DNA of 64,000 nucleotides from Psammoneis japonica. Lineage: Eukaryota. Where the stretch lies: NCBI GenBank assembly GCA_008632985.1, contig QPGO01000053.1:248001-312000 (forward strand), written 5' to 3'. Numbering within the stretch: the stretch's first letter is position 1; each line of letters starts with the position of its first letter. Shown here one piece after another: positions 7,470-55,871 of this stretch. The notes under the pieces were generated by a model. The model saw only the letters and a program-made list of their open reading frames with translations. It was not told the origin of the DNA and searched no databases. Both the position numbers and the translations under genes were made by a program.

Positions 7470-8086
7470 TTTGACAGCGTGTGGTCGATTGAAAGAACAG
7501 CAGGCGTGTTGAGTGTTGTCCTCTGCACTCGAACGGTTTTGATGAACGACAATGAATGAGATGCTGACGATGCACAATGGCCGACGAAAGATCTCAAAAC
7601 TCAAAATCATTATGCCACATGCCACATGCCACGCGGACGGACGCGAGCAGTGTTTTAGTCTTGCCTCACGTTTTTTTTCGTAGAAATAATAGTACTGGGG
7701 GTGGCGTTTGATTGGTCGTGGATTCGCAGCTACGTCAGTCCCGCTTTGTGAACGAAACGAAGCGAATGAAAGTACTGTAAATGGTACTAAATGTATCAGA
7801 GAGGCAAGCTGGCTTTTCTCGGTCAAAGTCCAGGCTGCATGCAGAGGTCACATTTCAGCCAACAAGCAATGCGGGACAAGGTGTGGGTGTGGAACAGGTC
7901 AGATTTGGAGAGCGCTCCTTTATGAAGCAAGTCCAAGTAGCGTATAGAATTAGATAATTACTCTGCACCAGACCTTTCGACGACCAGGCTATGATTCGAA
8001 CAAAAATCTGAGTGATGGATACGTGTTCTAGCTAGTTGGCTCTATCACGGAGAAACGCAAAATTACGATACTTCGCCGTCCTCCCG

Positions 8087-10060: not shown

Positions 10061-10275
10061 TGACAGAATTCTAAGAAGAATTAAAGGTGTATGTCACTCT
10101 CTGGCTGAAACATGTGTGACTATGTACAAAAAGCCTGTCAGTTTGAAGAAAGCGGTAAATGGTTTAGTCGGTAACCGGTTATAAGAGGACCTAGGTTCGA
10201 TTCCTGGGTATCGCAATTTTTCAGGTTGATGGGTCGGATTTAATCGAGTTGGTCAATCTTGTTTAAATCCTGTCA
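10061..10275 (+). mobile_element. Isolated LTR-like element (CoDi-type), 215 bp
   Basis: Preceded by PPT-like ATGGGGAG; starts TGACAGAATT and ends AAATCCTGTCA (inverted termini). Same GGGGAG|TGACAG junction as the 3' LTR at 19847. No matching TSD. Confidence 0.55.
10152..10215 (+). pseudogene. tRNA-like sequence lacking a complete anticodon arm
   Basis: Acceptor GCGGTA/TATCGC, D-arm GGTT-TAGTCGGT-AACC and T-arm CTAGG-TTCGATT-CCTGG (B box GGTTCGATTCC), followed by ATTTTT. Only ~9 nt lie where the anticodon arm should be. Confidence 0.55.
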
Positions 10276-13016
10276 GGGGCACTCTGTGTGAAGTGGGGCA
10301 ATGAACGCATTTTGTGTTTGATGTCCACCCAAATGAAGAAAAGTTTGCAGCTCAATCACACCTCCCAACAACACTTGAAGCTTTAAAAAAATTGCCTGCC
10401 CCACACAACTCTGCAGACACATTGAAAAACTCTTGCTTCGTGTGAAACAATGATGTCAAAAGTTCCTGTTGAATGCATGACTGCAAATGACACAAAGCGC
10501 CACTGAAGTCACACAGAAATGTGCTCACACAACACATGACACATGACGAGACAGCATCAATGTCACAGTCCAGCAGTGCAAGGCCCCCTGCCTGGAGCTG
10601 GAGCATCAGATGAAGACTTCTGTGTGTGGCACCTTTTTGCTGCTGAAGAGTGTCTCTCTCTTGCATTGTTCACTGAGTTTTGCTGGAGAGTGTTTGCTCA
10701 CATTTTGATGTGATCACTCCTGGCTGACTGGCAAGAATGTTTGCATTCTCTGGAGCTTGAAGCATGCAGCCACAGCTGTGGATGGTGTTGGCTGCCACAC
10801 AGTCTCACTCCAACAATGTCCAGGAGCATTTTCATTGTTCTTGCCATGTGGTGCCCACTTTCATTGCCAACAAATTGACGGCACTGCTTGCAGCAATGCA
10901 TTTGTTCTCATTGCTGCTGAGAACATGGCATTGTCAAACTTTGCACACCAAGAAGGCAACCATGTCAGAGCACAGCGTGCAACAATGTGCTGCAACACTG
11001 AAGCTTGTTTTCAATTTTTGCAAAAACAATGGCACCATTTTTTTTTGTTTCAAAGTGTCATTGAAATGTGCTGCTCACATTTCAGCCATGCTTGCTGTGA
11101 TGCCATGTGTGCCTCTCATTTTTTGGATGGTCAAGCACACAGCCAACATTGACTTTGGCACGCAAGTGAAGTGCAGCTTTGCCAATTTCATTGCACAACT
11201 GCATGTGAGACAGAACTTGTTCATGCCTGCACTCAGCAACAATGTTCAAACAACCCTTTCTCCCCCACGTGCACACCAAGGGACAAGAAGCCATGTGTGT
11301 TTCCACACAAGCTGTCTCCAGAAGCTGCAAAGAAACCATGCATGTTTCCACTCATGCTCCACCCACCCTGCCACTTTGCTCTCTTCACCAACTCTCTTTT
11401 TGCAGAATTGTGTGCCACTTGATGCTGCATGTTCATTTTTTACATTTTTGCTGCTGCTGCTGCTGCTTGTGCGCAAAACTCCACACAACTTGCAGCAGCA
11501 CACTCCCCCCTCCCTCTCCCTTGTCAAGAGAGCATGCCACATGCACAGTGATGGCAACCTCTGTCCAGTGCAAGCAAGCAACTGTTGCAGGGTCCTCTGC
11601 CCACCATCTTTGTGGCACATGAATTTTCTTCTTGTCGTGCAATGCCCAGCCAACAAACAACAGCATCAACAACCAACCAGTGTCAGCAAACAATTTGCTT
11701 CTCTTCTTTTTTGCTGTGCCAGCAGTTTGACAACACAATGTGAGTGTGCAAGGTTTGCATTGTCAGCTGCTGGCAAAGGACACACTGCACTCTCTCACTG
11801 GTTTTTTGTCAGAGAATGTGTGTGGCTGAAAGTGTGGTGTTGCCTCTTTGTGGCCTGGCACACCTCATTGACCAGTGGTGTTTTGAGAGCCAGAACATTG
11901 GTGGTGCATGACTGCTTTTTGATGAGTGGCATCAATGGCACAGTGTGGCCAAGGAGTGGTGCCTTGAAAACAAGAGGATCCCCAAACCAAAGTGCCTCTG
12001 TCTTGAAAACAACCAAGGGCAATGCTTGCAAAGCTTTTTTCTCTGCAATCTCTTGCTGCTCTGGCATTTTTTAGTTTGGCAATGTGAGCAATGGACCGTG
12101 CTGTTGTGGGTCAATGACCACACCAACAGGAAAAGTGGTTTTGGGCACGCCACTCTCCAACAACATCCAAGACCTGCACACGCATGGCAAGCTCTGTTGC
12201 ACGACACACTGTCCTCCCATTTCAACATCAAGACAAAGCAAAACCTCCAAAGAAGAAGGCCTGGACTCCACAATGCTCAGCCAAAAAGGGGAGGCACAGC
12301 TGCACTGAAACACATGGGACCAAGTGCCTGGCACACTCAACCTCTCAAGAGAGAGGTCAAAGACTTTGTGATGGGCAGCCAAAACAAGAGCCATTTCTGG
12401 GTTCAAAATTTCTCTCACAAAACCTGACCTTTCAAGTGGGGTGGTGGCAGAAAAAGGTGCAGCACATGGTGGCTGATGTGAAAAAAACAGCAGGTGCCAA
12501 GCTGTTTTGACAAGCAAGATTGGGCAGGAACACAGGAAGACTGGGCAAAAACACTGTGGCTGGTTTGTCATTTTGGCTAAAAAAGGAAAACTGTTTTCAT
12601 GCTGACAACTGCAAAGAATGTGATGAGTGGCAAGCGTGTGTGCTGCCTCATCATTTAAAACAATTTTTGGGTGAGTTGCAGCTCACACTGCAGCCCTGTC
12701 TGTGGAGATGGAACCACAAAACAAGCAGAAATGAAAACAGCCCCAAAAGAAGAGCAAGCCAGGAGAAATCATGATCAGCGGAGACCACTGTCAGATGGAA
12801 GTGAGCTGGCAAGGTGCTGGCCCCTCCAAGAGCATCGAAGCCTGGAAAAAGAAGACAGCAAAACACAGAAGCAACAAGACAGCTGAGCTGGCAGCAGCAC
12901 AAGTGACAAACCTCTGAGCCTGGTGATTGTGAGGGAGAGGAGAGGGGGGCAAAAAAGCCACACAGCATGATGTGTCTGTTTCAGCTGCAAAACAAGGAGG
13001 GGGGCAGCAAAACAAA
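10276..13016. mobile_element. Degenerate repeat/TE block, TpA- and CpG-depleted (host of the young Copia; continues after 20123)
   Basis: Almost no TA or CG dinucleotides and a strong TG/CA excess. Family not recognisable. Confidence 0.6.
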
Positions 13017-13292
13017 TGACAGGATTTGAACAGGATTTGGATGCGCGCGAAGCATCGCGCGCTGTTTAGTTTACCGCGCACAGTTTTGTGTGCTTTAGTT
13101 CCGCGCGTTCACGCGCGATGTAGTTTGCTTTCGAGCCACAAGGCTCACAAGAACAATGACAGTAGCCCGATTGTGCCGACTTGCACGTCTTTCGGCTCCT
13201 GCAACGGTCTCTGAGCGGAGACTCATCTGCCATTTAGACAGCAGTAAGGAGTTATTGTTTGAATTCTTGCCATTTGCCTTCAGTTTCTATCA
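13017..13292 (+). repeat. 5' LTR of the young Copia
   Basis: Matches 19847-20122 with 7 substitutions. Confidence 0.97.
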
Positions 13293-14231
13293 GATTAACA
13301 GTCTTGCTCATTGTCAACCCATTGAGCAACCGCCATCGTCGTCGTTGATTTACCAACGACGCCATTTCAATTCTACGTGGACCTCCGTATATATTCTACA
13401 TACATCGGCAAGTCTACGCGCATTCAATACCAGGGCATCGGCAGGAAGTTAACGTCACCGTCAAGTCTCCTTACCGCTGGATATCTGGATTGATTATACT
13501 ACCTTTGATCGCTGAAGACATACATTCAACGGTCATATCCAAGTCTATCCTTGATCCTCATCCCTTGATATACCTGTTCATCGGTTAACGGTCAAGAACC
13601 CTACATATTCAAGGATCTTCGTCGCTGAAGACATGTGTATATATACATGTCTTCACGGCCAAGAACCTGTACCCACTCTTCGGACTGCGGTTTTGCTGCC
13701 ACTCTACAAGCACACCGAGTCCATTGTACCTGATCTACCCCGGACTACTGGTGCTCTACAGTTCTACTAGGTCCACGAGGACGACTGTGAGAGCAAGCAG
13801 CCGTGATTGCAGCCTGCGTTGGGGCGAGGGTGCTTTCCCGCGTTTGTTCGTTCGTCCACAGCGCCCAACGCCTACGTCAACTGGCCAGCCTGATCGGGAA
13901 ATCCAACCGACATAAAATAAGAACGGTTCGGGGGTCTTGTCCACCTCTAGTCAGCTTGCCTGCAGGGGTTTACAACCCGCCACTCCGCTCGCAAGCAACC
14001 CAAAGCGCCACTGGCTGCGGGTTCGGACGTGCCGGCACAACTCTACGGTCCGGATGGGAAGTTTAGCACTTGACAACGAACGGGATGACAAAGCCCGGCG
14101 ACTTCTGATTTTAAGATAGTTCAAGATTTCAAGTCAAGTCCACTTCAAGTCAAGTCCATTCTCACCCAAGTTTCGAGTCTACCTTCGCTTCCCAACCAGA
14201 GTTGATTGTCCTGACACCACTTTTGTCTGCC

Positions 14232-17200
14232 ATGGTTCTCACTCGTCAGCAACAAACCGATGGTTTTGAGCACGTTGTTGGAGCCGTGCTTGCCCAAGGT
14301 GCTGGGAGTCCTCTTCGTTTGGCTTTGGCCCAAGACGGCACGGACTCGCATCAGGAACTGTTCACGTTCACACCGTCCCAAATCGACTCGCTTGAGTGCG
14401 ACAACGGCACTGATGTAATCCCTTTGCCCCGTGGTTACAAGAACATGTTAGCAGCACTGGTCAGCCTGTACATTGTCAAAGCACACAAAGGTCTTGACGT
14501 TGCCAACGACTCCTCTTTGTTCACGCATGACGAGTTCCTTGCCTGCCGCCTCAGCCCGGACTGCATGTCCTCTCTGTCCATCGGCAGCTCACCCCTTGCA
14601 CCTCCACATGTCACCAACCCGACCAAGGCATGCGACCCGGTGCGAGACTTCAAGCAAGGCATCAAGCGTGATCCCACCGCTTTCACAGCTCTCAAATCCG
14701 ACAAGCAGTGGCACACTTGGCACACCTCACTTGTGGCACAAGCCCGTGCCCAAGACGTCAAGTGCATTCTAGACTCGTCGTACAAACCGACCAGCCCCGA
14801 AGACAAACTGCTCTTTGCTGAACAGCAAAAGTGCATGTTCGCCGTCTTTGAATGCATCCTTCTCACCGACAAGGGCAAGGCTCTCATTCGCGAAAATGTG
14901 GGGTCCTCTGACGCACAGACCGTCTGCCGCTCCTTGTCTGAGTGCGCGCTTGCCTCCACCCATGCATCTGTCGAGTCCTCCACCCTGCTCACGCACCTCA
15001 CCACCGCACGTCTTGGTGATGGCACTTGGAAAGGTCCGACCCACGGGTTCATCCTTCATTGGCAAGATCAGTTGCGCAAGTGCGAGGCACTCATCCCCGC
15101 CAGCGACCACTTCTCTGAAGGACAGAAGCGCGTCATGCTCGAGAATGCCGTGCACCCTGTCGAGGAACTCCGTGCTGTCAAGAACCAAGCTGATCAGCAT
15201 CGACGCAGAGTGGCAAGAGCCTCACATCGATCAATGCTGTGGCTTGCTCCTCTCCGCGGCAGCTCAGTACGACAGCACGTTTCAACCCAAGACGACACCT
15301 CGAGCTCCCCGACGCGCCACACACGCACACGACGTCTGCTCCGAGGAACCGTCCGACGATGTGTTCTACGACATTGACAGCGACGTTGACGTCCTTCAAG
15401 CCAATGCTGCCTGCGCCCGTGGTCCCAGCCTCACCGGTGTCCAATGGAGACGTCTCCCTCCCGACCACCAACGGCTCTGGGATTCGTTGCCCGATTCCTC
15501 CAAGGCGATCATCCTTGAGCACTCTCGTCCGCCTCCCCGCAACCCGCGAGCCAGTGACTGCCATGAGTCTGTTACGGCCAACCTTCACGACCAACACCTT
15601 GGGAGTGACGGTGATGTCAACTTGTCCAACACGACTCCTGCTGACTGTGGTGACTCCGCTGCACATGTGGACGCCATTTCGGATGATCCCATCCTGGCGC
15701 ACCTCACCAAGCGCAAGCCACTGCCACCCGGTGATCTGCAACGTCTGTTGTCTCCTAACCAAGCCCCCAATGCCAGTCGACCTTGGCCATCCGCCGCTTC
15801 CTCTACCCCGCCAGCTTCTGCAGATGACATGGAACTTAACGGCCGCACTTGCCGCCGCGTTGACAACCACAATGTCATTTGCTCTGCCTCTGCTCATCGC
15901 TCCACACGCACTGGCGCTCTAGTCGATCGTGGGGCCAACGGCGGCATTGCTGGTGACGACGTCCGCGTCATCGCACGCACCTCTCGCCAAGTCGACGTTC
16001 AGGGCATTGACGATCATCAATTGGTGGACATCCCCATTGTCACCGCTGGTGCCGTCATTGAGACCCAGCGTGGTCCCGTCATCGCCATCCTCCATCAGCA
16101 CGCATGCACGGGAAAGGGCAAGACCATCCATTCCTGCGGCCAGCTCGAATGGTGCAAACAGGATGTCAACGATCGCTCTGTCAAGGTGCCCAACGGCTTG
16201 CATCGCATTGCCACTCCTGATGGCTATGTCATCCCCATTGACATCAAGGCTGGCCTGCCTTGTGTTGCCATGCGACCTTACACTGACGCCGAATGGGACA
16301 CCCTGCCCCACGTCATCCTCACCGGTGATGACACATGGGACCCTTCCGTCCTCGATCACTCTGTCACTGACAATGACCAGTGGTACGACGCGATCTCTGA
16401 CCTGCAGGACGATCCCACTGCCAACCCATTTGACGAATGCGGCAACTGCCGTCACCGTGTCGTTGTCAACGAGACCATCTTGTCCGCTTCCTTGTCTGCC
16501 GATCACGCGTCCGCCCTCGATGATCACCTCATTCCGAACGACGACGTGTTCTACGAGTGTCATCTGCATGCGATTGACCCCAAGGGCGATGACGTTCCAC
16601 CTCCGGAGCGCACTGTACAGCCCAAGGACCCCCCCTTCGAGTCTCTTCGGCCTTGCTTTGGCTTCCTGCCTGCCGATGCGGTCCGTCGTACTTTTGACTG
16701 CACCACGCAGTGCGCCCGCATGCCCGCCGGCACACACCTTCGCAAGGCCTTCAAATCACCCAACCCCGCCCTTAATGTGCACCGTCGCAACGAGCCTGTC
16801 GCCACTGACACCGTTTGTGCCGACACCCCGGCCGTCGACTCTGGTTGCACCAGCGCCCAACTGTTTGTTGGCACCGAGTCTACCGTCACTGACGTCTACG
16901 GCACTGAGACGGACAAAGAGTTTGTCAACACACTCGAGGATCAGATCCGTGAACGTGGTGCCCCATCCAAACTCATTAGCGACCGTGCTCAAGTTGAGAT
17001 CAGCAACAAAGTGCTCGGGATCCTACGCGCCCTCTTCATCTCCAGCTGGCAAAGTGAGCCTCACCAGCAACACCAAAACTTTGCCGAGCGTCGACACCAG
17101 ACTGTGAAGCGCATGGCGAACACTGTCATGGACCGTTTTGGTTCGCCCGCCCACACATGGCTGCTGGCGCTCATGTGCGTGTGCTTCACACTCAACCATG

Positions 17201-19899
17201 CAGCGTCCCCACGTCTCCACTGGCGCACGCCCCTCGAGACTCTCACTGGATCCACCCCGGACATCAGCCCATTGCTTCGCTTTCACTGGTGGGAACCAGT
17301 GCACTTCCACCTCGATGACTCCAATTGGCCGTCCGAATCTCGTGAGTTGCGTGGACGCTTCGTTGGCATTGCTGAGCACGTCGGCCACCAGATGACCTTC
17401 AAGATTCTATCTGACGAGACTCAGAAGATCCTCTGCCGGTCCAACGTTCGCTCCGCCACCCCCGATCCTGCCGTTCGAAACCTGCGTCTTGATCCTCCTG
17501 ATGGGGAGCCACCTGAACCCATCATCAAATCTCGCCATGACGACAACCCCGTCGATTCTCCTGATGGGGAGATCAGGACACCCAAGATGCCAGTTTTCGA
17601 TCCGCAAGACATCATTGGACGTACCTTCCTCATGCAGCCACAAGAGGACGGACAACGCCACAGAGCTCGCATCGTCAAGGCCGTCGAAGACCACGAATGG
17701 AAAGTGAACGGCAATCCCGAGCTCACTAAGTTCGTCTGCTCTGTCAACAATGACGAATACGAGGAAGTCCTTGCCTGCAATGACATCATGAATCACATTG
17801 AGCAAGAAGACGAAGACACCACTGTTTGGAAATTTCGACGCATCGTGTCACACGAAGGCCCTCTGAAGCCTCACGACCCAACCTGGAAAGGCTCAAGCTA
17901 CAACATCATGCTTGAATGGGAAAGTGGGGAGATCACGTCCGAGCCTCTTGCCATCATCGCCAAGGACGACCCCGTCACCTGTGCCATCTATGCACGAGAG
18001 AACGGACTCCTCGACACGGATGGATGGAAGCGGTTCCGCACCATCGCGAGGCGCCAAAAGAAGCCATTTCGCATGGCCAACCAAGCCAAGCTTCGCTCCT
18101 TCCGCACTGCACCTCGCTACAAGCACGGATGCGAAGTTCCCCGGAACTACAAACACGCCATGTCACTGGACGAACGCAACGGCAACCGCAAGTGGGGAGA
18201 CGCAACTAATCTCGAGATGGACCAACTCGACGAATACGAAGTCTTCCATGACTGCGGGCCCTTCAAGTCTTCCACTCCTCCTGCGGGACACAAGAAGATC
18301 CGAGTGCACCTGGTGTACGACGTGAAACACGACGGTCGCCACAAGGCACGACTCGTAGCCGACGGGCACCTCACGGACGTACCTGTCGACAGTGTCTGCT
18401 CCGGAGTAGTCTCCCTTCGTGGCCTTCGGCTGATGATTTTCCTGGCCGAACTCAACGAGCTGGAGACATGGGCCACCGACATTGGCAATGCCCACCTTGA
18501 AGCCACCACCAAGGAGAAGCTTTACATTGTAGCTGGACCCGAATTTGGCAAACTCGAAGGACACATCCTTGTCATCCACAAGGCACTGTATGGACTCCGC
18601 AGCTCCGGTCTCCGCTGGCACGAGCGCTTCGCCGACTGCCTGCGAGCTGAAGGCTTCTTCCCCTGCCGCGCCGAACCCGACATTTGGATGCGCAGGAACG
18701 GCGACCACTGTGAATGCATTGCCGTTTATGTGGATGACCTCGCCATTGCCATGAAGGACCCTCAATCTTTCGTCGACACTCTCACGGAAAAGTGCAAGTT
18801 CAAGCTCAAGGGTGCGGGACCCATTGAGTTCCATCTGGGTTGCGACTTTTCCCGGGACCCCGACGGAACCTTGTGCCTGTCTCCGCGCAAGTACATCGAG
18901 CGCATGGTCGACAGCTGCGCCCGACTGTTTGGGGAGAAACCTGCCACCAACGCCCTGTCACCTCTAGAGAAGGGTGACCACCCCGAACTGGACACTTCCG
19001 AACTGCTGGGACCCGATGGCATTCACAAGTTCCAGTCTCTTGTTGGTTCACTCCAATGGGCAGTGTCCCTTGGTCGAATTGACATTACCACGGCCGTCAT
19101 GTCACTCTCTAGCTTCCGAGCTGCGCCCCGTCAAGGCCACTTGGATCGTGCCAAACGCGTCTGTGGGTGCCTCTCCAAGATGCGACACGGTGCTCTCCGC
19201 GTTCGCACGGAAGAGCCCGACCATTCGGATCTCCCTGCTCCGGCCTACGAATGGATGCATTCCGTGTACGGTGAAGCAGAAGAGATGATCCCGAAGGACG
19301 CTCCACCGCCCCTTGGCAAGTTCGTCACTGCCACCCACTACGTCGATGCAAACTTGTGCCATTGCATGCTCACCGGGCGCTCTGTCATGGGAATGCTCCA
19401 CTTCCTCAACAAATTCCCGGCTGATTGGTTCTCCAAGAAACAAGCCACCGTGGAGACTGCAACCTGCGGATCTGAATTTGTTGCCGCAAGGAATTGTGTT
19501 GAGCAGATTATCGACCTGCGCATCACCCTGCGCTGCCTTGGCGTCCCGATCCGTAATGTCAGTTACATGTTCGGTGACAACAAGTCGGTTGTAGACAGTG
19601 CCACCATCCCGCACTCCAAGTTACACAAGCGACACACCGCACTGTCGTTCCACCGTGTGCGTGAGGCAATTGCCTCTGGTTGCCTTGAGTTCCACTTCAT
19701 CGAAGGCTCCCGCAACCCTGCTGACATTCTCAGCAAGCATTGGGGTTACTCCCAAATCTGGGACCTTCTCCGACCCCTCATGTTCTGGAACTTCATTCCA
19801 TCCGAAGTCGAATCTGTTTCTGTGGCTCCTCAAGCAAACTGGGGAGTGACAGGATTTGAACAGGATTTGGATGCGCGCGAAGCATCGCGCGCTGTTTAG
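14232..19899 (+). pseudogene. Copia gag-pol polyprotein, frameshifted near 15200-15230 and hypermutated (Tyr->Cys/His)
   Basis: Gag DFKQGIKRDP; protease LVDRGANGG; integrase VATDTV..LISDRA..QNFAERR; RT KARLVADG, KALYGL, YVDD; RNase H HYVDA, GSEF, FGDN, NPADILSK. Confidence 0.93.
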
Positions 19900-20122
19900 T
19901 TTACCGCGCACAGTTTTGTGTGCTTTAGTTCCGCACGTTCACGCGCGATGTAGTTTGCTTTCGAGCCACAAGGCTCACAAGAATAACAACAGTAGCCCGA
20001 TTGTACCGACTTGCACGTCTTTCGGCTCCTGCAACGGTCTCTGAGCGGAGACTCATCTGCCATTTAGACAGCAGCAAGGAGTTGTTGTTTGAATTCTTGC
20101 CATTTGCCTTCAGTTTCTATCA
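19847..20122 (+). repeat. 3' LTR of the young Copia
   Basis: Follows the PPT; paired with 13017-13292. Confidence 0.97.
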
Positions 20123-20127
20123 ACAAA

Positions 20128-20151
20128 GAAGAAGAAGAAGAAGAAGAAGAA
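20128..20151 (+). repeat. (GAA)n microsatellite next to the insertion site
   Basis: About 8 GAA units directly after the TSD. Confidence 0.9.
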
Positions 20152-20949
20152 TGAGAGACCAGCTTCTGGCGGCAGTCTTGACAAAGTGAATTTTGCAGCA
20201 GCATGACAACACTGTGTGCCAGTGCAGCCGGCAAGCAGCACCAAGAGCTTGAGAGCACAGCTGCATTTGTTGTTGCAAGTTGCAGGCAGCTCCTTTTCAC
20301 GACACTCCTCAGCAGACATCAGCTGTAAAACATGCATGAAAACAGTGTCACACTGAGTTGGAAATGATTTTGAAAGCAACAAAACATCAAAATTCTAGCC
20401 AAAAAGTGCTGTTGTCCAAGCTTGCAGTGGCTTCTGAGGCAGGTGTTGGAAAAAGGTGGCTTTTGGTGCATCGGAGCAACAAGTTTTGAAGGGGCAAAAG
20501 AGGGGTGGGCAGCAGGAATCCTCACTGCAAAAAGAGCCAGTTTTCTAAAATGGTTGACTTGGGGTCATGTTTTGCACATCTGGCAAGATGGTGCAGCTTG
20601 AAAAGCTGCTCTTGGAGCACACAACAACATGCTGGGGGGCCATTCTTCTTCCAAGCAAAGACGTGATGTGTTTTGTGCAGGGGAAGAGCTGGTGTGGGCA
20701 CAAGTGAAAACAAACAGAAACTGACAGTGAGACAAAGGAGCACATGTGCAAAATGGAAAGAATGACTCTACACTGCATTGTGCTGCTGCTGTGCAAAAGG
20801 AACATCACACAGTTTTGTGGAACAATCAGAGGGTCCTCCATGGTGTTGGAAAGGGTTGATCTGGAGAAACATGTGGCGGGATTGTCGCGCGGAGTGCGCT
20901 TGGAGATGGAGAGAAAAAGGGCAGGCCAAAAGTGCAGACAGATGGTTGA

Positions 20950-21600
20950 GAGGAGGAGTTGGTGACAGTGGGATGGTGAAGAAGAAGAGCTTGGCATGTG
21001 GAAAGATGGTTGGAGAGAGCAAAGCCGAAGTTGAGGCTGAGGATTTGAGAGGCCCAGTCAGAGTTGAGGAGTTGCAGTGTGATGGGAGGAGCCAAAGCGG
21101 TCCAGTGAAAGTTGTTTCCAGGCCGCATTGGAGCAGGTGAGGAGGTCAGAAGGTGTGAGCAGTGAGTTGGTGAAAGTGGACAAGGGTGCTTGGCAGTTGG
21201 AAAGGGAGGGCGGGCTTGTCCAGGGCGGTTTTGGAGGAAGGGGGGTGGGATGGTGGAGGAGGATGTGGTGGAGATGCCGAAGAAAAAGAGACGTGGAAAT
21301 GACATCCGATTCTGCCAAGGCAGTCAAATGTAAAAGGAAGGAGAAAGAGCCCAGCTTGATTGACAGCGTCAATGATGTCGGGGCCATGGGTGGGTGGTGT
21401 GGAGCGTCCGAGAAGCTTGTCCCCCCATGTGCACACTGCTGAGGTGAGCCTTGTTTTTATGGGTTTTCAGGGACAGGCAAACCAGGTGCAGGAGGCGGCG
21501 GAGCTGGCGGTACAGTGACATCGATGACCAAGAATTGGTGGGTGGATGGGGCGTTTGGTGGTGTAGAACCAGGGATGAGTTGAACGGTGGGCTGGTCAGG
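20950..21600 (-). mobile_element. 3' fragment of a non-LTR retrotransposon with a restriction-like endonuclease (CRE/Ambal-like), degenerate
   Basis: Minus-strand fragments FLVIDVTVPP...KLLGRS..DIIDAVNQAGLFLLPFTFDCLGRIG...WASQILSLNFGFALSNHL resemble the PD-(D/E)xK RLE C-terminus. Frameshifted. Confidence 0.5.
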
Positions 21601-39579: not shown

Positions 39580-39789
39580 ATACCAGTACGAGTAGGTCTA
39601 GAAAACCACATCGGCATGCAATCTCAATCGGCATCATCGGCGGGCGGGCTGGAGGTGGTAGGGACGGACGGAAGTACAAAAATTGCGTAGAAAACCCTGT
39701 ACTGTACAGTACGTACAGACAGACCGCCACTCCGATTCTACCGTATTCTCGCGACATGGCAAAGAATTTGTTGCGCAGCAAGTCCCATG

Positions 39790-42700
39790 AGTTTTGCCAG
39801 CTGCATCAAAAGTGAGAAAAACAGAAAATGGTGAAATGCTTCAGCCAGATGACAAGGAGTTGACCAGCTGCTCTGCACCTGTGACTGACTTGGTGCCGCG
39901 CTGCAGAGGTGCCACACCCAGAGGAAAAAGCCAGGAGGAGGGCAGGGCAGCAGCGCTCAGTTTGTGTCGTGCTGTTGTCTCTGCTGCCATCACCAGTGTC
40001 AAGTGGTTGCTTCTGCTGATGCATGTGTTTTGTCTGAACACCATGAAAAACTTGGCTCCATCTCTGTGGCAAATGTTTGCAGGGGGGGGGGGCAAAAAAT
40101 GTGCACCAGGTTGCATTTTTTCAGTGGCGGTGTGCAGAAGACAAAGAGCCACAGGTGCTGCTGTGATGCATGTTTGAAGAGTGGGCTGCAAGAAGACTTT
40201 GGACTCGTCACATCACCTCCCAGAAGTCAATGGTGCAAGAAACATGCTGTTTCTTCCAGTCACTGTGAGAGGCTGGAAAAGGCTTTTTAATCACAGCACA
40301 GCACAAATCTGCTTTCTTTGCAAATTTGACCCATGCAGGAATGGGGCCCAAGTGCTTGAGCACAGAGCTCTGGTGTTGCACAAAATTGTGAGACTGTTTT
40401 GTGCAGAGCACATGTGCACATGATGGCAAGACATGCAGAGCCTGAGTTCTTGCTCAGAGCCAATCACACTTGGTGCTGCTGCACAGATCATCCCATGTGC
40501 AGTCTCTTCTCATGCAATGCGCGACACTTGCGAAATGGCCAGTCATGCCACAACTTGATTGCATGGAACTCCAGCAGCCTGTCACAGGTCTTGCACTGGG
40601 AGCTGCATTTTCCAACATGTGCTTCTGTGGGTCAGCATTGTGCTGCAGACAGCCCGCAGATGCAGGAAAGCAGCATCATTTGCAACTGCAGCATGGATGC
40701 CTGCTGCACTTGCTTGCCCCCATGACAAGGTTGGCCAAGTTGCAGACCCATTGCTGTGACCCATGCAGGAACAGGGTCTGAAAGCTTTAGCAGAGATTTC
40801 TGGTGTTGTGCAAAATCATGAGATGATTTTACACTGAGCACATGCACCCACGACAGCAAGACATGTGGAGCCTCCTGAGCCCTTGTGACGCGTTCCAGAC
40901 GCAGGTGGGAATCCGTGTGACATTGGGTCCGTAGAATTCTGCATGCGAGCTCCACAGTAAAATTGTCAGGTGATGAGAACATCAATGATCGCCAACAGAA
41001 AATGAGGCAATTTTGCGAACGGACAAACTCATCAAAACCCCTCATGATGCCCTCCTGACTGCCCCACACACTGTTGTTTGCTTTTGTGGAACACAAGGCT
41101 GCACCAGCGCTGGAACTGCAGCCTCAAATGGGCACCCAGCTTGCATCTCATGTGTTTCAAGAGACACCCACAATTTTGGTTGCCTGGCTTTTCAACTCTG
41201 TGTGTCATTCAATCATGGGCACTGCATTGCACCCACTTGCACTCCACCCAGATGAACATGCAACCATGATGTTGAGTGTGCTTGTTGTTGTTGGAGCATC
41301 TGGCTTGAGGGGCACTGCGTGTGATGTGGAAATAAAGTCATGTCTTTTGAGTCCCAATGTGGTGAGTTGATGACTGTTCTTTGGAGAGGATCTTCTCCAT
41401 CATCGATTGCAATCTCACCAACTTTTTTCATGCTTGCTCCATGGAGTGAATCATCCTTTTCATCAGGAGCAAAAAGTGGCATCTGTCAACACACAATGAT
41501 CTGTTTTTGGTGTGCACACAACATTTGACATTGAGGAAAACCACAGCCAACACAGCAACAGAGGGGGCAAGTGCGCTGAGCAGCACAGGAAGCCTGGCGG
41601 GATTCCCTTTTGGTGACATTGACTTGCCGGCTCAACACTCACTCCAAAGAGCCATTTGCACTTGTTGAGTGCATGCCAACTCATCAGAAGATCACAAGAT
41701 CATCAACACCTGTGCTGTGAGTGGCAGAGCACACAGAAGGCAACAAGCAAAAGACCATGACCAGCATGAGGGCCATGGTGGAAGAGGCAACAAGAAGCAT
41801 GCCAAGAACAAGAAGTCCTTCTCCAACATGAGATGAAGTTTCACCCTTCATCCCTGAATGACAACACGCACAATGCAACACACAAAGTCATCAAGAGGAA
41901 GATCTGCAGACACATGCAGAAGGAATTTGAACAGAGCAAACAAATGACAAGGTCCCTGGAAAACATGAAGAAGTGCCTTGACTTTGAGGCCAAGAAGCCT
42001 GTGCCGAGGCTGCAAAAAGCAGCTGCACCCATGGAGGGGTCAACCCCCACACAATTCTGACATGACAAGCAGTTGGAATGTGAGTGCCATGCCAAATGCA
42101 AGGAGAGCTGCCATGCAAACTGAAGCTGTTTGATGAGAATGAATCAAAGGCATTCACTGTGGTTGTGGATGACCACTGTGTGAACCATGTGAGGAACAGG
42201 GTCCCAGGCAACCCAAGCCATGACAGCATTGGGGATGATCCAATCAAGTTGTTGAGACTTGTCCATTCCCTCACATTCAACTCAATCAGAGGTTGATGTT
42301 TGTTCCGTGTGCATGCATTGACAAAGTCCCTGAAGAACACACCATGTGCAAACAAGAGATGGTGTCAAAGACCACTCTTTTGTGGACAGCAATGTGAGCA
42401 TCAACACCACCAGATCAACAAGATCAACCTGTTCAACCTGGAGGAGGGGAGCTGTGTGGCATGGGTTGCAACTGGTCAATGAATGACCAGAGACAAGCAT
42501 GAGCCAGACCAACATGAGCATTGAGACTGATGAAATCATTTTCAACAATGGCTCTGCCCTTGGTGTGGCAGCAAGCTGGAGGTTGGTGTGCAATGCAGAA
42601 CGGGCAAAGATTGACTTGCACATGAACACAAGAGTGGACACCCTGGACAAGGATTGTGCCATGCCAGGATTGGGTGACATGAACTTGGGATCAAAACATG

Positions 42701-45700
42701 CAACAGCAAATGTCCCAAGCCTGAAGGATGCAAAGGCCAAGCATCATGTGATGCACAACAACCAAGTGGTGGATGAGTTCTGACTGTTGGACAAGAAGAG
42801 TGGTGAGGAAGTTGCAGCATTTAAAGACAATGACATTGGACTGTGCACATTTGCACCAAACCAGAAGTTCTTTGATCATGTTGAGGGTCTGCAAAGAGCA
42901 GAGTCATGAGTTGGCATGCTGCCCAAGAAGAATGCCAAGAAAACAAACAACAAGCAAAGGAGGGCATTGGGAGCTGTTGCCCTGACCATGAGGCACAATG
43001 CCATGGGCCACTCCAAAAGGGAGACAGCAAACACTGAGCTGGCACTTGGACTGCATTGCAAGGCTGGAACACCCAGTGTCAGAGATTTCAAGTGATTCCC
43101 GCATTCCATTCAGGTGGTGAAGAATCTGTTCATCATGCCAGAGAATGTGGGCAGGATGGTGGACATTTGGGGGGCACCTGTTTGCACACTGAAAGACGAG
43201 ACCAAAAGTGCCCACCATCCTCATGCAAGGAATGACAAGATTGTGATGCCACCTGAGATCTGTGACAAACAAAGGAAAGGCATTGCCCTGTGCATCAACA
43301 TTGTAGAAGTGTGCAGTGTTGAGCCTCTGCGTGCTGTTGAAAAGACAATCAAGTGTTGATTGAGCATGAAGCTGAAATCCTAGTGTGGATGTGCACAAGT
43401 CATTGGACATGGGGCACTGCGGCAACACAACAAGGTCATGTTCAAAATTCACTTCATTGGAGGCAACCCTGAGTTTGAGGCCATGCTTGCTGACAAAGTG
43501 ACCAGTGGCACAATGAACCTCAAACTGTTGCCAGTGAACACTGGCAATCACATGCCAGAGGTTGAGTGCAGTGTCAAAGCCATCAAAGAAAGGACTCAGG
43601 CTGCTGTGCATCACCTGCCTTTCAAGGCCACACCCAGACTTGTGTGTGAGCACACAGCTGCCAAGAACACAGCCATGGTGAATGCACATCCACAGAAGGA
43701 ATGCATCTCCAACACCTGCAGCCCACACACCATCATGCAACACCAAGTTTCTGACTGTGCCAGACACTTTGAATTTGCTTTTGGGGAATTTGTTTTCTCA
43801 AGTTGAGAACAACCCTGCCAACACAATGGAAATGTGTGGGGCATTGACACTGCACATCTGCACCCACATTTTGACTCTCTAAAGGGAGGAAACCATGCCA
43901 TGAACCTGCACACTGGGAAACTCCTCAACCTTTGCAAATGCACCTCCACACCCCCAACTGACATGCACATCAAAGAAGTCAAAAAGATGGCACAGGCCTG
44001 GGGTGTCAAAGATTTTAAATTCACAGGAAAATGTGGAGGCAATCTTTGCAACATCTGACTGGACTGCAGGAGTGGAACATGACGACAATGACTGCAACAA
44101 CTGTGACAAAAATGATGACAAAGAAAGCAAAGATGGCATTGATGAAGACTGCAATGAGATGGACTCAGAGGGGAACACAAAGAAGCCAATGACACCCCAG
44201 CTGGCAAGAGGTCCAGTCCCAACTGGCATGATGAAGTGACAGAGTCTGACAATGAGAATCCTGACTGTCACAAAGAAGATGATCATGAGGACATTGATGA
44301 CACACAAGACAACAATGGGTCCAGCAAAGACAACAAGGGAGCCAAAGAAAGAACAGAGGAAGAAGCCAGAGCTGCAACTGGCAGGACCACAAGGTCCAGG
44401 AAGTCCTTTGCACAAAGGCATGAGAAGCATGAGAAAATGGTGCAGTTCACAGGAGTGACCAGCTCTAAAGAAGAGCAGGAAGAGATTGCCAAACTCAAAC
44501 ACTGCCATCACTTGTGAACAAACATGAGTCCAAACCCAGAGGATGACATTGAATGCAACTCCAAATTGGCAATGGCATTGGCACAGTTCATGTGCAAAAC
44601 AAATTGCAGACTCCATTTTGCCAGAAAGGGTTTTTCGTTTGCCCAACAGTGCCCACTGCACAAAGGCCCAAAAGCATTTGGACAGAAGGGGCATGATGCC
44701 TCCAAGAAGGAGACAGGACAACTCCATGACAGAGTGTGCTTTGCACTGACATCTTTCAAAGACATGACTCTCAGTGAGAGGGCCAACCTTGTGGAGAAAC
44801 CAGATGGTTGGATTGAAGGATGAATGGTCTGCAATGGGAAATGACCAACCAGAGATTGGCAAGACAAAGACAAGTCAGCAACCCAACAGCATTGCCAGAA
44901 GGAATGTCCATGACTGCCATTGTTGATGCTGATGAAGGATGTGACATCATGTGTGCTGATGTTCCCAACACATTCATTCAAGAAACTCAGGTTCCAAAAG
45001 TTGAAGAGAAAGAAAGGATCAGCTCATGATGAAGATTGCAGGATTGCCAGTCAACATGCTCGTCAGCATCAATCCTGACCATCATGGACTGCATGTGGTC
45101 CTGGAAAAGGGCAAGAGAGTCCTTTGCGCACAAGTGATTAGAGCAGCACATGGCATGTTGTTGGTTGCAGTGCAGCTGTGGCACAAGAAGTTCCTCAAGG
45201 ACTTGGAAATGACTGGGGTTGTGTCCAACACATGTGACCCATGCACTGCCATTTGCACCATCAATGGCAAACAGCGTGCAGCAAGATTTCACATGGACAA
45301 CCTGTTGTTGAGCCACTGGAACCTAAAAGTGAACAAGAAATTTTTAAGATGGCTCAACAGAATGCATGGGAGCCATGGAAAGGACATTGCAACTCAAGGC
45401 AAGAAGCATGACTGTCTGGGAATGATTCTGGACTTCAGCAAGAGGGGCAAGGTGTTGGCAGACATGACCAAGTTCACCGGCAAGATGGTTGATGATTTTC
45501 CCAAGGCTGTTGAGAGCATGGATGCTGCCATGGCACCAGATGGAGAAAACAGCACATTGATGATGTGCACGCCACGATTGCTGCGCTGTGCACAAGAGTC
45601 AGAGAACCTGCCAACAAGGACCAAGGGAAGCTGATCCATTGTTTGAGACACATGGGCCAGACTGAACACAAGATGAAGTCACAACATTGAGCACAAAAGA

Positions 45701-48700
45701 CCTCCAATTTGTCAAACAGCATGTGGATGCATCTGAGAGCCATGCAAGATCAGCAATGTGATGGAGCAATCCAAAAAATGTCAAAGCAACACAAGCTGGA
45801 CACCCAAAGCAGCACAAAAGCTGAGCCAGCAGGAGTTGATGATGCAATGACCATGACATCATGGACCAAGCTCTTCATGGAGCACCAAGGCCATCCAATC
45901 AACAAGAACATCCTGTGTCAAGACAACAAGAGTGCCATCTTGCTCAAGACCAATGAACACAGAAGCATGGGGAAGCACTCCAGAGCTCTCAACATTTGGT
46001 GCTTCTTCTTCATGTCCAATCAGATTGAGAAGGGTGAGCTGAGGCTGCAATGCTGAACTGCCAATGACATGTTGAGAGCCTTCATGACCAAGCTGTTGCA
46101 AGACAAGAAGTTTTGAAAATTCAAACAAGCCATCACAGGATGTCAATGGTGAGCATGACAGGCTGAGTTCCTGTCCGGTGATGTCAGATGAGAATTCTGA
46201 TGTGCACGGGTGAAAGATCCCTGATGCACGTGGGTGAGAGATCCCCATGAGACCAAGACCTTTAAGGAGCCAAGAGACAAATGGCTCACAGCACTTCAAT
46301 GGGATGTTGAAAGTTCACAACATTTGTTGAGAACAAGCCAGGATGAGCAATGGAGCAATTGTGTGTGATGCAAAGACACAGCACTGGCCAAAAGATCATT
46401 GTTGGATGGACACCAAAGCAATCATCATGTGGCCATTGAACAGCATCAGGCCAATGAGATGTCCTTGCTCAGAAAGGATGGAAAAATGGGCCAGTCAGAA
46501 AGCAGATCTCATTGAACAATTGGCCAGGAAAGCACTGGCAAAAGCCTCAGATGTGGGTCATTCTGCAGAGATCAATTGCTGGAAATGGAGAAGGCAGCAG
46601 ATGCAAGAGATGCCCTGGACTGCATCCATCTGGTGGTCAAAGAAACAGAAGACAAGAATGCAGTCATTCATCTGATGTGGGAAGAATTAAAGAATGCACT
46701 GCAACAACCAAAATGGGTTGAACTGTGCAAGAGAAGAACTGAGTTCATGGAGAACCCACACACACACACATGAAGTTGCAGGTTGGTCTCCCAAGATTGA
46801 TGAACACATGTCCACTGCCACACCAATGATTTCCACACATGATGACTTTGAAGATCTTGAAGAAGACATCAAGGGAAAAGTTGGGGCCTTGCACCTGACT
46901 GAGGAACACTGGAAGATTGTCAGAGGCAATGCCTGCAGGCAACAAGTCCCATTCTGTGCCAGATGGGGAGTGATGTGCAATTTTAATGAGGCATTTGACC
47001 AAATGACAGTGGCAGGCTCAGAGGGTGACAACTTGCAGTTGTCCCCAAGTGGGTGAGATGTGGGCTGTCTGCAAGAACAGTTGAGCATGAGTTGTCCTGA
47101 AAAATTGAAGTCCCTTGATGAAGAGAATCACAAATGAAGCTGACAGGACCCAAGGCTGCTGCTGACTGGTGAGGGATCCAACTGGAGTGATTTTTGATGT
47201 CAAAAAATTGGTGCTGTTTTTCCACCATGACGTTGAGGTTGTGAAGCTGGGTTTGATGTGGACATGCCACAGAATGGAGTTCTTAGAATTGCACCCAGAG
47301 AGATGAGACAACTGCTTGCTTGTCTGTCAGACAACATTGTGAAAGAGATTGTTTGTTGTGCCCACATTGGGTGTTTCTCATGGAAGCCATGGAAAAGGAC
47401 AACCCACAAGTTTCATCACATGGTGAATTTCTCAGACAAAGGACATCATGCCTCTCTGCAACATGGCAACCAAGATGTCAAAAATGTTGATGAGAAAAAT
47501 GGTGTCCCAGGAGAGGAAATTGTCAAGCACCTTGTCCCGAATTCTTGGAACACCGGTGAGAGCAGCAGGAGTGTGTTGGAGCATCTGGCTTGAGGGGCAC
47601 CACATGTGACCCAGAAATGAAGTTGCATCTTTTGAGTCCTGATGTGGTGAGTTGATGACTGTTCTTCAGAGGATCTTCTCCATCATCAATTGCAATCATC
47701 TCACCAACTTTTTATGCTCACTCTTTGGAGTGAATCACACGGTTCATCAAGAATGACAAGTGGCATCTGACAACACCCAACAATTTGTTTGGTGTGCACA
47801 TCATGACATTTGACATTGAGGCAAGCCACAGCTGACACAGCAACCAGGGCAAGTGTGACAAGCAGCACAAGAAGCCTGGTGGGATTCCCTTTTGGTGACA
47901 TTGACTTGCTGGTTCAACAGTTGTGCAATTTGCACATTGTGCAGTCACACCAGACCAGCACCACAGTGAAAACAGTTGGGTGTTTTTGTTCAAGCAGGAG
48001 CTGCAGCAGCAGGAGTGGCAGGGTGGGTGATGGCAATTTGCTCCCACGCTGGAAGCAAGCAGGAGGAGCTCCCCAGATTGCAGGCAAGAAGCATGGCAGC
48101 AACAACTGCAGCAGGCAGCCACTGTGTCAGACATGGCACAACCACAACACCATCTTGAGCTGAGAGAAATCACATGATGTGATGTGCCACACACTGCAAA
48201 GCAAACACACAAAAGCTGCACCATGTGGTGTGTGTCAGGGACTGTGAAAAAACCACAAAAAAACAATGCAGCTGCACACTGCACACCACTTCTTCTTCTT
48301 GTGTTGAACTCTTTGTCTCAAAGTGCTTTGCAGCAACACATGGAGTTGCCAGATGGGGCCCAAATGCTGGCACAACTCTTGAGAGTGAGCAGCACCAGCA
48401 CAGCAACTCTGTCTCATGAAAGATTTAACAAAGATGAACAAACCAGCAGAGGTGATCCAGTGATGTGGAAACTTCAACAGGAGGGCAATGCATGCAAAGC
48501 CAATGTGTGCAATTTTCAGCATCCTTCTGCCTTTTGCAAGGGAGAAAATGCAACAGGAGCATGTGCCACATCTGATGGAAACACTTGACACATGCATGCA
48601 TCATGATGATTTTTGGCATCACCTGTCCTTGCTGCATGTGCTCAACACATCTGTTGTGCAGTTGGGCAGCATGGATGAACTTGGCATCATCTTGATTGTG

Positions 48701-50490
48701 GGCTGCTGTGCTGTTTCCAGGCACCTTTGTCTGTCTGTGTTGCCATTTTGATGTGAGCACAGCTCCAGTTGGAGTGGTGGGTGAGCTGTCGCTTGTTGTG
48801 GATTTGGTTTTCATGCTTTTGTTGGGTGCTGAGCTTTTAGATGCACAGCTGGCCAGCTGCTGCTCCACCATGTGCTGCACTGCAGCCAAAGCCTTGTGGT
48901 TTTTGAGTGCAGAACAAACAACACACACAAGGGGCAAATTTCCTTTTTTGTGCACCCCTTGTGCTGCTAAAACCCACATGCTTTTTGTGTGTGCAGCAAA
49001 CAGTGCAATTGTTGCAAACTCTGACAACCTTCTTTGACCAAAAAAAGGTTGTTGTTTTGTTTTTAAAAATCACACCTGTGTGCTCACCCCAAAGTGTTGG
49101 GCAATTATTCTCAACAATGGGGCAGTGGGGGGATGCAGAGCACAGCTCAAGAATGTGATCCAGCACAAAAAAGCCAACCTCCGCCAGTGCTCTGGATGAT
49201 TTGGTCAGCCAGATGGTGTCCCTGGGAGCATCCACACCATCTCATCCCAACTGGCAATGGTGTTGGAGCCCAGCCACCAGCCACTTGTGCCTGTCAGCTG
49301 AGTTTCAAAAAATGTTTGAAGTGCCAGCCCATTTTTTGTGGCAAGAAGCAGCAACACCCAATGTGCACTCAACAAATCCAGCAAATTCCACACATCTTTG
49401 CCAGCCATCAATGCTGTCAATGCACCAACTGTGTTGAAGTTCATGTGGACTGTGCCAGAGTCACAAAAGCTGCTGAGTCTGCATGCAAGGCTTGGAGAGA
49501 GTTCATTTTTGGCATGCAAGCACAAACCCATGTGGGGCTCAGCATGCTCCTCAGCTCCATGCAGAACAGTGGCACAAGGATCAGAAAGATCCATCACTGT
49601 TTCAACCAACCTGGAGAACATGGAGACATGAAACAACATGACAGTGGTGCAAGAGCACTCCTCCAGCCACAGGTTGCAGCACGAACCAGCTTTTCCATTT
49701 TGTTTTGAAAGAAGACTCTTGCACAGCATGCACAGCCAGGAGGATCAACACAAAAAAAGCACAACACACACAAGTGACAGCTGGCTTCCAGTGAGCACAA
49801 GTGCACTTGTGCAATTCGTTGCTGTTGTTGTTTGCAGTCAATGACGACTTTGTCATTTGCAATCCAGAGAACTCCACAATCAAGAGCTCTCAGCAGCAAA
49901 AGTGAGCCAAGGCAAACGCTCTGGAGTGACAGCAGCACATTGCAGCAGCAGCACTTTTGACAAGTTGAGATCTTTTAACTGTGCCCAGTTGGATCTGTGC
50001 TGAGCAATGTTTCTGAAAAGCAACGCAGGAATCACAAGTGCGAATGTTCCAACACAACATTCTTCCTCTTTTTAATCTCCCAGAAATTCGTGAGCACATT
50101 GAAGCCCATCTGCCCCCAGTGAGAGACACATGCACCAATTGAGTGTTTCTTGCAGCATTGGAGAAAAGACAACTGGTGAAACCACAGTGTGCCAAGGACA
50201 GTGAGTGCCTCACCGAACCAAACTTTGCAGCTGCTGTGTCTTGTGCGCATGTCGTGGGGGGTGGGTGGGTGGGGGGGTTCATTTTTGCTGCTGACAATTC
50301 CATTCTTTGTTTAGGCCTGTTCAGTCTCCGAGCATGTGAGCTCGTCAAATGATTCGCGGGAGATAGATGCCCCTGCTTGTGCTGATAAATGAGTTTTGCA
50401 TGGTTGGTCCCATGTGCCGGTATGATGGGAAACAGCATCACACATGAAAATTGTTTCCGTTGACAGCACAAGCAAGAGACACGCCTGCCA
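39790..50490. mobile_element. Degenerate TE block, TpA/CpG-depleted, containing the nested old Copia
   Basis: Abrupt loss of TA and CG with TG/CA excess; ~120-bp internal direct repeat at ~40328-40447 and ~40759-40880. Confidence 0.65.
41289..47919 (+). mobile_element. Full-length but heavily decayed Ty1/Copia LTR retrotransposon (CoDi-II-like)
   Basis: LTRs 41289-41637 and 47574-47919 (TGTTG...CAACA); TSD GTTGT at 41284-41288 and 47920-47924; AGCAGGAGTG before the 3' LTR. Remnants: DPIKLLRLVHSL (gag), HMPEVECSVKAIKER (IN), ADVPNTFIQ and LWHKKF (RT), SSTKAE and ILCQDNKSAI (RNase H). Confidence 0.9.
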
Positions 50491-52315: not shown

Positions 52316-52499
52316 CTTGGCTGCAACAGACAAGAGAAATCAGCTGGGAACATATCATAAGGGTATGGTGTACCGTAGATATCTTTTAATTTAGAACAGT
52401 TGCAACATCTCACGCATGCATAATAGTGTCTATTACAAGCTACATTTCTTATCATCTTAAAGCGGCACTCGTGACCAAGGACTGAACAAGACCGCCCAT

Positions 52500-55400: not shown

Positions 55401-55590
55401 ATCCAACAAGAGCCAACAAAGAATGAGATGATGGCAGTTGAGCCTTGCATCACATTGCACTGCAAGAGAGCCGCACGTGGTTGCAGGCTTTTTGAACCCC
55501 ACACTGGACCTCAGACAGTCTTCTGGTGGGCGATCACACTTCTCTTCCAAAGATCAGAAATCACACCTGCGGTCAGGCTGTAAACAAACC
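52500..55590. mobile_element. Unclassified TpA/CpG-depleted insertion between the two bestrophin duplicates
   Basis: Same compositional signature as the other TE blocks; sits at the duplication junction; no recognisable domains. Confidence 0.55.
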
Positions 55591-55871
55591 ATAAGGATTG
55601 CCAACAACAGCAAAGACAGATGCAACAGAAAACGAGCTGGGCGGGTGGGTAGGGTGCGGCAGTGACATTTTTTATTTTTTGGGCATGTTCGCGTTTGCGT
55701 TGCATCTCACGCGCGCATTTTCAACGGATGATGGTGCGATGACGATGACGAGACGACGAACGACGATGCACATTGAACATGCACAAGAAGACGAAGCATG
55801 AAAAGGCCACTTCATTGTTTCCAACTAGAAGAACACACTGTTTCCCTTACTCCACAAGGTAGCTCTTCATC

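Follow-up and report, generated by a model that had tools for sequence, protein, structure and literature searches.

Probable TpA-directed hypermutation of integrated LTR retrotransposons in a window of the diatom Psammoneis japonica genome

The two long terminal repeats (LTRs) of a retrotransposon in the diatom Psammoneis japonica differ at seven positions, and every one of these differences falls in a pyrimidine-purine (YpR) dinucleotide. The element lies at 13017-20122 of a 64-kb window of contig QPGO01000053.1, the window being the whole stretch of DNA that was analysed. How did the two ends of one insertion come to differ in this way, and did the changes arise in chromosomal DNA or by editing of the RNA before reverse transcription? 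A first-pass annotation of the sequence had argued for the former. The best explanation is probably a hypermutation that acts on DNA after integration, is restricted to transposable elements (TEs) and symmetric between the strands, and converts TpA to CpA or TpG alongside a slower decay of CpG. The parts of the element are as follows.

13012..13016 (left) and 20123-20127 (right), no strand assigned: target-site duplication (TSD) ACAAA, 5 bp.
13017..13292, forward strand: 5' LTR of the young element, 276 bp, TG..CA; TpA observed/expected ratio (O/E) 0.53, CpG 1.24.
14115..15374, forward strand: open frame upstream of pol that overlaps the pol frame, 420 aa between stops.
14815..19899, forward strand: pol frame, open over 1694 codons, RVT_2 at residues 1155-1367; TpA O/E 0.22, CpG 0.95.
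19847..20122, forward strand: 3' LTR of the young element, 276 nt, 97-97.5% identical to the 5' LTR.

Structure and the RVT_2 match identify 13017-20122 as a complete LTR retrotransposon. With TG..CA LTRs, a TSD and RVT_2 (Pfam PF07727; E = 3e-28, score 99.5 bits where the cut-off is 31.6, at residues 1155-1367 of the pol protein P0001), it is of the Ty1/copia type. The upstream frame at 14115-15374 is a possible gag, for which Pfam gave no match. Pfam returned no rve match for an integrase at E <= 5 in pol residues ~596-895, nor in the relative P0003; a D..D..E-like stretch upstream of RVT_2 was seen by eye only. A purine run, GGGGAG, at 19841-19846 adjoins the 3' LTR. No further copy of the LTR or of the element was found within the window.

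Realigning the two LTRs confirmed all seven reported differences: 13105 G/19935 A (CG/CA), 13154 C/19984 T (CA/TA), 13157-8 TG/19987-8 CA, 13175 G/20005 A (TG/TA), 13245 T/20075 C (TA/CA) and 13254 A/20084 G (TA/TG). All seven are transitions in YpR dinucleotides, with no indels and no transversions. By sense-strand type they divide into 3 T/C and 4 A/G, and they are clustered, at 13154, 13157, 13158 and 13175 and then at 13245 and 13254. YpR dinucleotides cover 144 of the 276 LTR positions (52%), which gives a probability of 0.0105 for seven of seven, or 0.020 with the adjacent TG/CA pair counted as a single event. A Fisher test on differing positions (7/144 in YpR versus 0/132 elsewhere) gives p = 0.015. 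Sites involving TpA differ in 4 of 11 cases as opposed to 1 of 21 for CpG sites, about eight times as often (Fisher p = 0.037). The YpR enrichment is real but only moderately significant; alone it is suggestive, not compelling. An edited RNA template cannot produce mismatches between the two LTRs of a single insertion; these must date from after integration or from its final moments. Because all seven are of the hypermutable type while none of the 132 other positions differs, LTR divergence overstates the age of the insertion, and the earlier contention that dating would be inflated here holds.

It had also been proposed that each LTR has lost TpA dinucleotides that the other keeps. Each LTR has nine TpA, of which seven are shared and two are private, the other LTR having CpA or TpG there, and the four TA/CA and TA/TG differences may be TpA losses rather than gains. 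We examined the direction of change through protein relatives of pol. These are abundant in public metagenomes (1844 proteins at E <= 0.001 among 8000 candidates), but none is a close copy, the nearest sharing 62.6% identity over its whole length and 75% over the RT region; P0002 and P0004, which sit on contigs of megabase size, come from other families (46-56% identity). A metagenome scan for the relatives' DNA returned one locus, at 49% identity, too distant to polarise sites. In an alignment of 39 full-length relatives, a column was called conserved when at least 80% shared the same residue. At the 35 conserved Tyr columns the window copy has Cys in 13, His in 6, another residue in 4 and Tyr in 12. 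All 19 Cys and His codons are TGY or CAY, one transition from TAY. The same test applied to the relatives finds Tyr to Cys or His in 8 of 1426 column-sequences. In the reverse direction, none of 6 conserved Cys columns is changed and 1 of 28 His columns is (to Asp), so that 0 of 34 went to Tyr. The window pol contains 1.36% Tyr versus 3.1-4.5% in 83 full-length relatives, and 3.0% Cys versus 0.5-1.4%. Since conserved Tyr became TGY or CAY and conserved Cys and His never became Tyr, this comparison supports TpA to TpG or CpA as the direction of change in the pol lineage. The changes strike conserved residues and hence look like damage rather than adaptation. No stop codon can result from changes of this kind, which is why the pol frame stays open; its product is nonetheless probably non-functional.

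The signal extends beyond the young element. Across the whole window TpA O/E is 0.40 and CpA/TpG 1.38, but the signal is very uneven along it, and the strongest depletion lies in three older blocks.

10301..13016, no strand assigned: block A, left part; TpA O/E 0.03, CpG 0.11 (measured over 10301-13000).
20123..21300, no strand assigned: block A, right part; CpG returns at ~21300, TpA is rare to ~21650.
39775..50300, no strand assigned: block B; TpA O/E 0.04, CpG 0.09, CpA 1.84, TpG 2.04 (measured over 41001-50300).
52470..55570, no strand assigned: block C; TpA O/E 0.06, CpG 0.11 (measured over 52501-55600).

Together the blocks hold 46 TpA (O/E 0.04, a frequency of 0.0026) and 119 CpG (0.12, with a range of 0.06-0.19 across the blocks) in 17,521 bp, while CpA and TpG stand at 1.83 and 1.95. 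The near equality of CpA and TpG indicates that both strands are affected. In the remaining gene-rich host sequence (38,906 bp), TpA O/E is 0.57, CpG 0.97, CpA 1.19 and TpG 1.15. The blocks consist of complex, non-repetitive sequence and their boundaries are sharp, within tens of bases. At the left edge of block B, at 39,775, TpA and CpG fall from about 1 per 10 bases to almost none within ~20 bp. Within the 64-kb window the mutation is restricted to elements, and host composition is normal. The young element is inserted inside block A and keeps a CpG O/E of 0.94-0.95 with TpA already depleted, whereas the old blocks have lost both, which is most simply read as a fast process at TpA and a slower decay of CpG. 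At the right edge of block A the two depletions end at different places: between 21300 and 21650, CpG is normal again and TpA nearly absent. Hardly any TAA or TAG is left in the blocks (1.6 and 0.66 per kb versus 8.7 and 8.3 in host sequence), and many long spurious open reading frames (ORFs) result; block B alone, at 10.5 kb, has 55 stop-to-stop frames of at least 90 aa.

Block B also contains an older element, at 41289-47919, recognised by structure only.

41284-41288 and 47920-47924: TSD GTTGT, flanking both LTRs of the older element.
41289..41637, forward strand: 5' LTR of the older element, TG..CA.
47574..47919, forward strand: 3' LTR of the older element, direct repeat of the 5' LTR, TG..CA.

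Over 342 aligned columns this pair has 55 differences, 41 transitions and 14 transversions. Twenty-four of the 41 transitions form 12 double differences in which one LTR has CA and the other TG. In 20,000 random placements of the same substitution counts, such doubles averaged 1.06 and never exceeded 6. The other YpR columns are CA/CA (30), TG/TG (29), CG/TG (3), CA/CG (2) and TA/TG (1). This is the expected outcome of independent, near-complete conversion of ancestral TpA or CpG in each LTR, and it is much stronger evidence of post-integration DNA change than the young pair's seven sites. A non-TE direct duplicate of 1.5 kb in the same window (50930-52457/55812-57344, 88% identical) served as a control. 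It has 88 transitions, 91 transversions and only ~3 CA/TG doubles. Because the duplicate is not itself hypermutated, duplication alone does not seem to be a sufficient trigger. The two copies exactly bracket block C, their own TpA and CpG are normal, and the first holds a 358-aa ORF (50947-52020).

Several observations weigh against post-integration TpA hypermutation, and we consider them with the alternatives they would favour. All tests were confined to the single 64-kb window. Seven sites alone are weak evidence, their dinucleotide class was picked after the data had been inspected, and we only infer the direction of loss at the sites themselves. One of the differences is of the CpG type (CG/CA), the TG/CA double may derive from CpG, and all 12 doubles of the older pair could stem from CpG too, as in ordinary methylated repeats. 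The seven differences could then be ordinary post-integration substitutions, a mixture of CpG decay and C to T changes that create TpA, with the restriction to YpR partly due to chance. A p value of only 0.01-0.02 for a class defined after inspection would suit such an account, as would one classic CpG change and a double that could reflect CpG decay on both strands. A GC to AT bias is also usual, being 2.65 in Bigelowiella natans outside its hypermutable regions according to a preprint (10.64898/2026.01.13.699255). However, the elements in the window destroy TpA and do not create it. The preponderance of TpA over CpG sites among the differences and the lack of transversions and of changes outside YpR do not fit either, and the non-TE duplicate, in which transversions match transitions in number, illustrates another pattern altogether. 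We therefore regard ordinary substitution as very unlikely.

Other copies of the family in the same sample bear on a second alternative. The short-read data comprise four runs from one sample and one study, with no RNA run among those listed. Logan contigs of run X1 were aligned to the window at a likeness of at least 88%, and 13,709 pieces matched. Summed contig depth is 55,557-199,102 over the element and 64-105 in the flanks, values that should not be read as copy numbers. Of the positions at which 10% or more of the depth departs from the window copy, 201 are transitions (60 A>G, 56 T>C, 43 C>T and 42 G>A) and 28 are transversions. Among the 40 of 232 places listed, none coincides with any of the seven LTR sites, and 25 of the 32 in-element transitions lie in YpR (p = 0.0012 for an expected share of 0.50). 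In codon 18124-6, where Tyr is conserved, the window copy reads CAC, and in other copies T makes up 78% and G 56% of the summed depth. Because protein relatives conserve Tyr there, this split between CA and TG is demonstrably derived from TpA. Two results from the same data complicate this account. None of the 40 of 232 listed places has CA or TG in the window where at least 90% of the others have TA, and at 13874, 15269 and 18317 the window copy reads TA and 85-100% of the other copies read TG. The latter points to subfamily structure, with mutated states shared by descent, or to reverse changes.

Given so abundant a family, the LTR differences might have been imported, either by ectopic gene conversion or through assembly or polishing errors among copies that vary at YpR. 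The depth over the element, inter-copy variation that is mostly YpR transitions, and the clustering of the LTR differences are all compatible with this. In run X1 no contig bridges flank and LTR by at least 31 letters, the contigs being fragmented in this very high-depth family. The flank contigs do end at the junctions, 25 and 29 letters into the LTRs and below the 31-letter bridging rule, with 2 and 0 differences. A processive mutator would also be expected to leave clustered changes, and the older LTR pair repeats the same logic with 55 differences. We find import quite unlikely. In the left flank, which belongs to an old block, assembly and short-read contig differ only at 12368 and 12669, where the assembly reads TG and the contig TA; these could be allelic or could reflect ongoing TpA loss.

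The remaining objections concern how much of the loss followed integration. From 7 shared TpA, 4 single-sided and 1 ambiguous double, we estimate a loss per TpA per LTR of ~0.22. At conserved Tyr codons the loss is 54% (19/35) versus ~5/23 for TpA copies in the LTRs (Fisher p = 0.016, or 0.012 against 4/22). TpA O/E is likewise uneven within the element, with the ORF at 0.22, the leader at 0.60 and the LTRs at 0.53. Because the loss in the ORF exceeds that implied by the LTRs, in-situ mutation of the window copy cannot explain all of the depletion: either much of it was inherited from a source copy, or mutation struck the ORF harder than the ends. There is also a hint of a sense-strand excess, with Tyr to Cys 13 times and Tyr to His 6 times and an ORF TpG O/E of 1.49 versus 1.24 for CpA, which is not significant (binomial p = 0.17). 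All of this would be accommodated if most TpA loss preceded integration, through ADAR-like A-to-I editing of RNA, editing of cDNA, or mobilisation in trans of a mutated source copy, the LTR differences being only a small post-integration tail. At 15269, a conserved Tyr codon, 93% of the other copies share TG, suggesting inheritance through amplification. However, no difference between the LTRs of a single insertion can come from RNA editing. T to C and A to G changes both occur on the sense strand, in the six Tyr to His changes and in the near-even split of the LTR differences. The old blocks are strand-symmetric, and the comparable signature of B. natans was seen arising in chromosomal DNA (10.64898/2026.01.13.699255). 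We think it unlikely that most of the loss came before integration. The claim of chromosomal mutation instead of RNA editing therefore stands in part. The LTR mismatches, the agreeing signature across the window, the 12 doubles of the second LTR pair and the direction given by the Tyr codons favour it, but a 54% loss in the ORF exceeds the ~22% implied by the LTRs, so part of the change may predate insertion. Change after integration does occur; only part of the element's change is tied to that stage.

If post-integration hypermutation is the right reading, the seven LTR differences would capture, at an early stage, a mutation process that acts on the DNA of integrated elements. TpA would be converted to CpA or TpG by A:T to G:C transitions on both strands, in elements only, with a slower conversion of CpG to TpG or CpA alongside. 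Over time, copies would lose nearly all of both self-complementary YpR dinucleotides, and neighbouring host genes would remain untouched. The chemistry at TpA may be enzymatic deamination of adenine in DNA, as proposed for B. natans, and the CpG part may be deamination of 5-methylcytosine in methylated elements; targeting could be guided by sequence or by chromatin. The loss of CpG may thus be a separate, methylation-driven process. Alternatively, a single enzyme system might serve both, either a DNA deaminase that attacks A in TpA and C in CpG or a 5-methylpyrimidine oxidase whose targets are T in TpA and 5-methylcytosine in CpG. That diatoms carry a dedicated genome-defence mutator, akin to fungal repeat-induced point mutation (RIP), which recognises TEs precisely and erases both TpA and CpG, is possible but doubtful.

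Which known processes does this resemble? RIP converts CpA to TpA and so enriches TpA. Deamination of 5-methylcytosine in methylated repeats converts CpG to TpG or CpA, and diatom transposable elements can be CpG-methylated. APOBEC enzymes act in TC and CC contexts, giving G to A changes, and these contexts do not fit the pattern in the window. RIP is described as a DNA-level, dinucleotide-specific hypermutation of repeats (PMC2621366). Like RIP, the process here is a transition hypermutation that destroys TEs and leaves sharply bounded, compositionally odd blocks. Unlike RIP, it brings TpA down to 0.04 and CpA and TpG up to 1.8-2.0, and it spares an 88%-identical duplicate; RIP was rejected as an explanation because the direction is opposite. 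CA/TG doubles between copies and a CpG O/E of 0.06-0.19 in the old blocks resemble CpG decay. However, CpG methylation decay alone was rejected since TpA is lost, with Tyr becoming Cys or His at conserved codons, and since the ORF has a TpA O/E of 0.22 with CpG at 0.95. ADAR and APOBEC3 also cause deaminase-type transition hypermutation of retroelements, and the preference of ADAR for a 5' U next to the edited A, as given in the B. natans preprint (10.64898/2026.01.13.699255), matches TpA. Unlike the process here, ADAR (A-to-I in RNA) and APOBEC3 (C-to-U in cDNA) act before integration and on one strand, and can give neither an LTR mismatch within one insertion nor a strand-symmetric excess of CpA and TpG. 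Selection against UpA and CpG in RNA was ruled out as well, because conserved Tyr codons are destroyed and an O/E of ~0.04 is too extreme.

The closest parallel is TpA-specific hypermutation of integrated viral DNA in B. natans, described in a 2026 bioRxiv preprint by Mettrop et al. (10.64898/2026.01.13.699255); in the literature searched this was the only account of TpA hypermutation found, with no report from a diatom. According to the preprint, 230 of 231 single-nucleotide mutations in two integrated viral regions of mutation-accumulation lines were A to G or T to C, all at TpA, at a rate of ~6e-7 per site per generation in the viral regions (10.64898/2026.01.13.699255). The preprint also describes 124 genomic clusters of windows poor in TpA and rich in CpA+TpG, enrichment of TpA-depleted coding sequences (CDS) in transposon-type domains (reverse-transcriptase and DDE Pfam families), and an ADAT2-like adenosine deaminase as proposed enzyme candidate (10.64898/2026.01.13.699255). 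The two systems share TpA to TpG or CpA change on both strands, confinement to foreign or integrated DNA with a normal host, and clusters in which TpA is low and CpA+TpG is high; TpA frequency is 0.0018 in the preprint's low-TpA CDS versus 0.0026 in the blocks here. Unlike B. natans, a chlorarachniophyte in which viral DNA is hit, the window comes from a diatom, and the targets are LTR retrotransposons and unidentifiable old repeats. Nor are the old blocks depleted in TpA only, as in B. natans: their CpG O/E is 0.12, whereas a word count of that preprint gives 0 for 'CpG'. Further, the evidence here comes from LTR pairs and protein outgroups, that for B. natans from mutation-accumulation lines.

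What the old blocks once encoded was sought by homology. None of 21 block ORFs had a Pfam family above the curated cut-off (one sub-threshold Myb match was seen), and a relaxed scan of 4 block ORFs gave only a sub-threshold RNase_T match. A hidden Markov model (HMM) built from the 39 copia relatives found nothing at E < 0.4 outside the young element. The stretch 45005-45631, taken by eye for a reverse transcriptase, was withdrawn, with no support from the relaxed Pfam or copia-HMM scans. Rfam found no family and ARAGORN no tRNA in the window. A tRNA-like stretch with a GGTTCGATTCC T-loop motif was seen by eye at 10150-10240, just outside the left edge of block A, where ARAGORN and Rfam are silent.

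The young element has some further features. Over both strands and all six frames, its 7.1 kb hold 17 ORFs of at least 100 aa. Other family copies have a single additional base after position 15202, 15203 or 15227; because this falls where the upstream and pol frames overlap, the gag/pol frame relation in the window copy may differ from that in other copies. Directly past the right TSD lies a (GAA)n microsatellite at 20128-20152, and the contig comparison passed over 20115-20160 as a repeat. The window contains long genes free of introns. The best named relatives of its CCT-gamma gene (4120-5577) are all diatoms, at 75-84% identity, and the Atlas cluster nearest to its cGMP-dependent kinase is mostly Bacillariophyta. 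Given this gene structure and the diatom relatives, B. natans was rejected as the host. The host gene at 23906-25480 encodes a Cys-rich repeat protein with Pro/Thr linkers, in ~230-bp units of 68-73% identity, and a 137-bp tandem duplication of 96% identity lies at 6568-6842, inside the host ORF 5946-7847.

If our reading is correct, TpA-directed hypermutation of mobile DNA, previously documented only in one chlorarachniophyte preprint, would operate in diatoms, which are a major group of algae and much studied. The same signature would then occur in a different supergroup from B. natans, and in LTR retrotransposons. LTR-divergence ages of diatom retrotransposons would be inflated, and old elements would be invisible to homology searches, as with the 21 block ORFs. 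Loss of TAA and TAG would yield long spurious ORFs, so that converted DNA would look gene-rich and such frames could be mis-annotated as genes. That CpG and TpA are lost together gives a handle on the mechanism, which could be one enzyme or two processes, and by comparing LTR pairs other protists could be tested for the process inexpensively from an assembly alone. Should a dedicated mutator exist, its signature in both Rhizaria and stramenopiles would mark an old or repeatedly acquired eukaryotic defence, and LTR dating and homology-based TE annotation would be systematically misled in such genomes.

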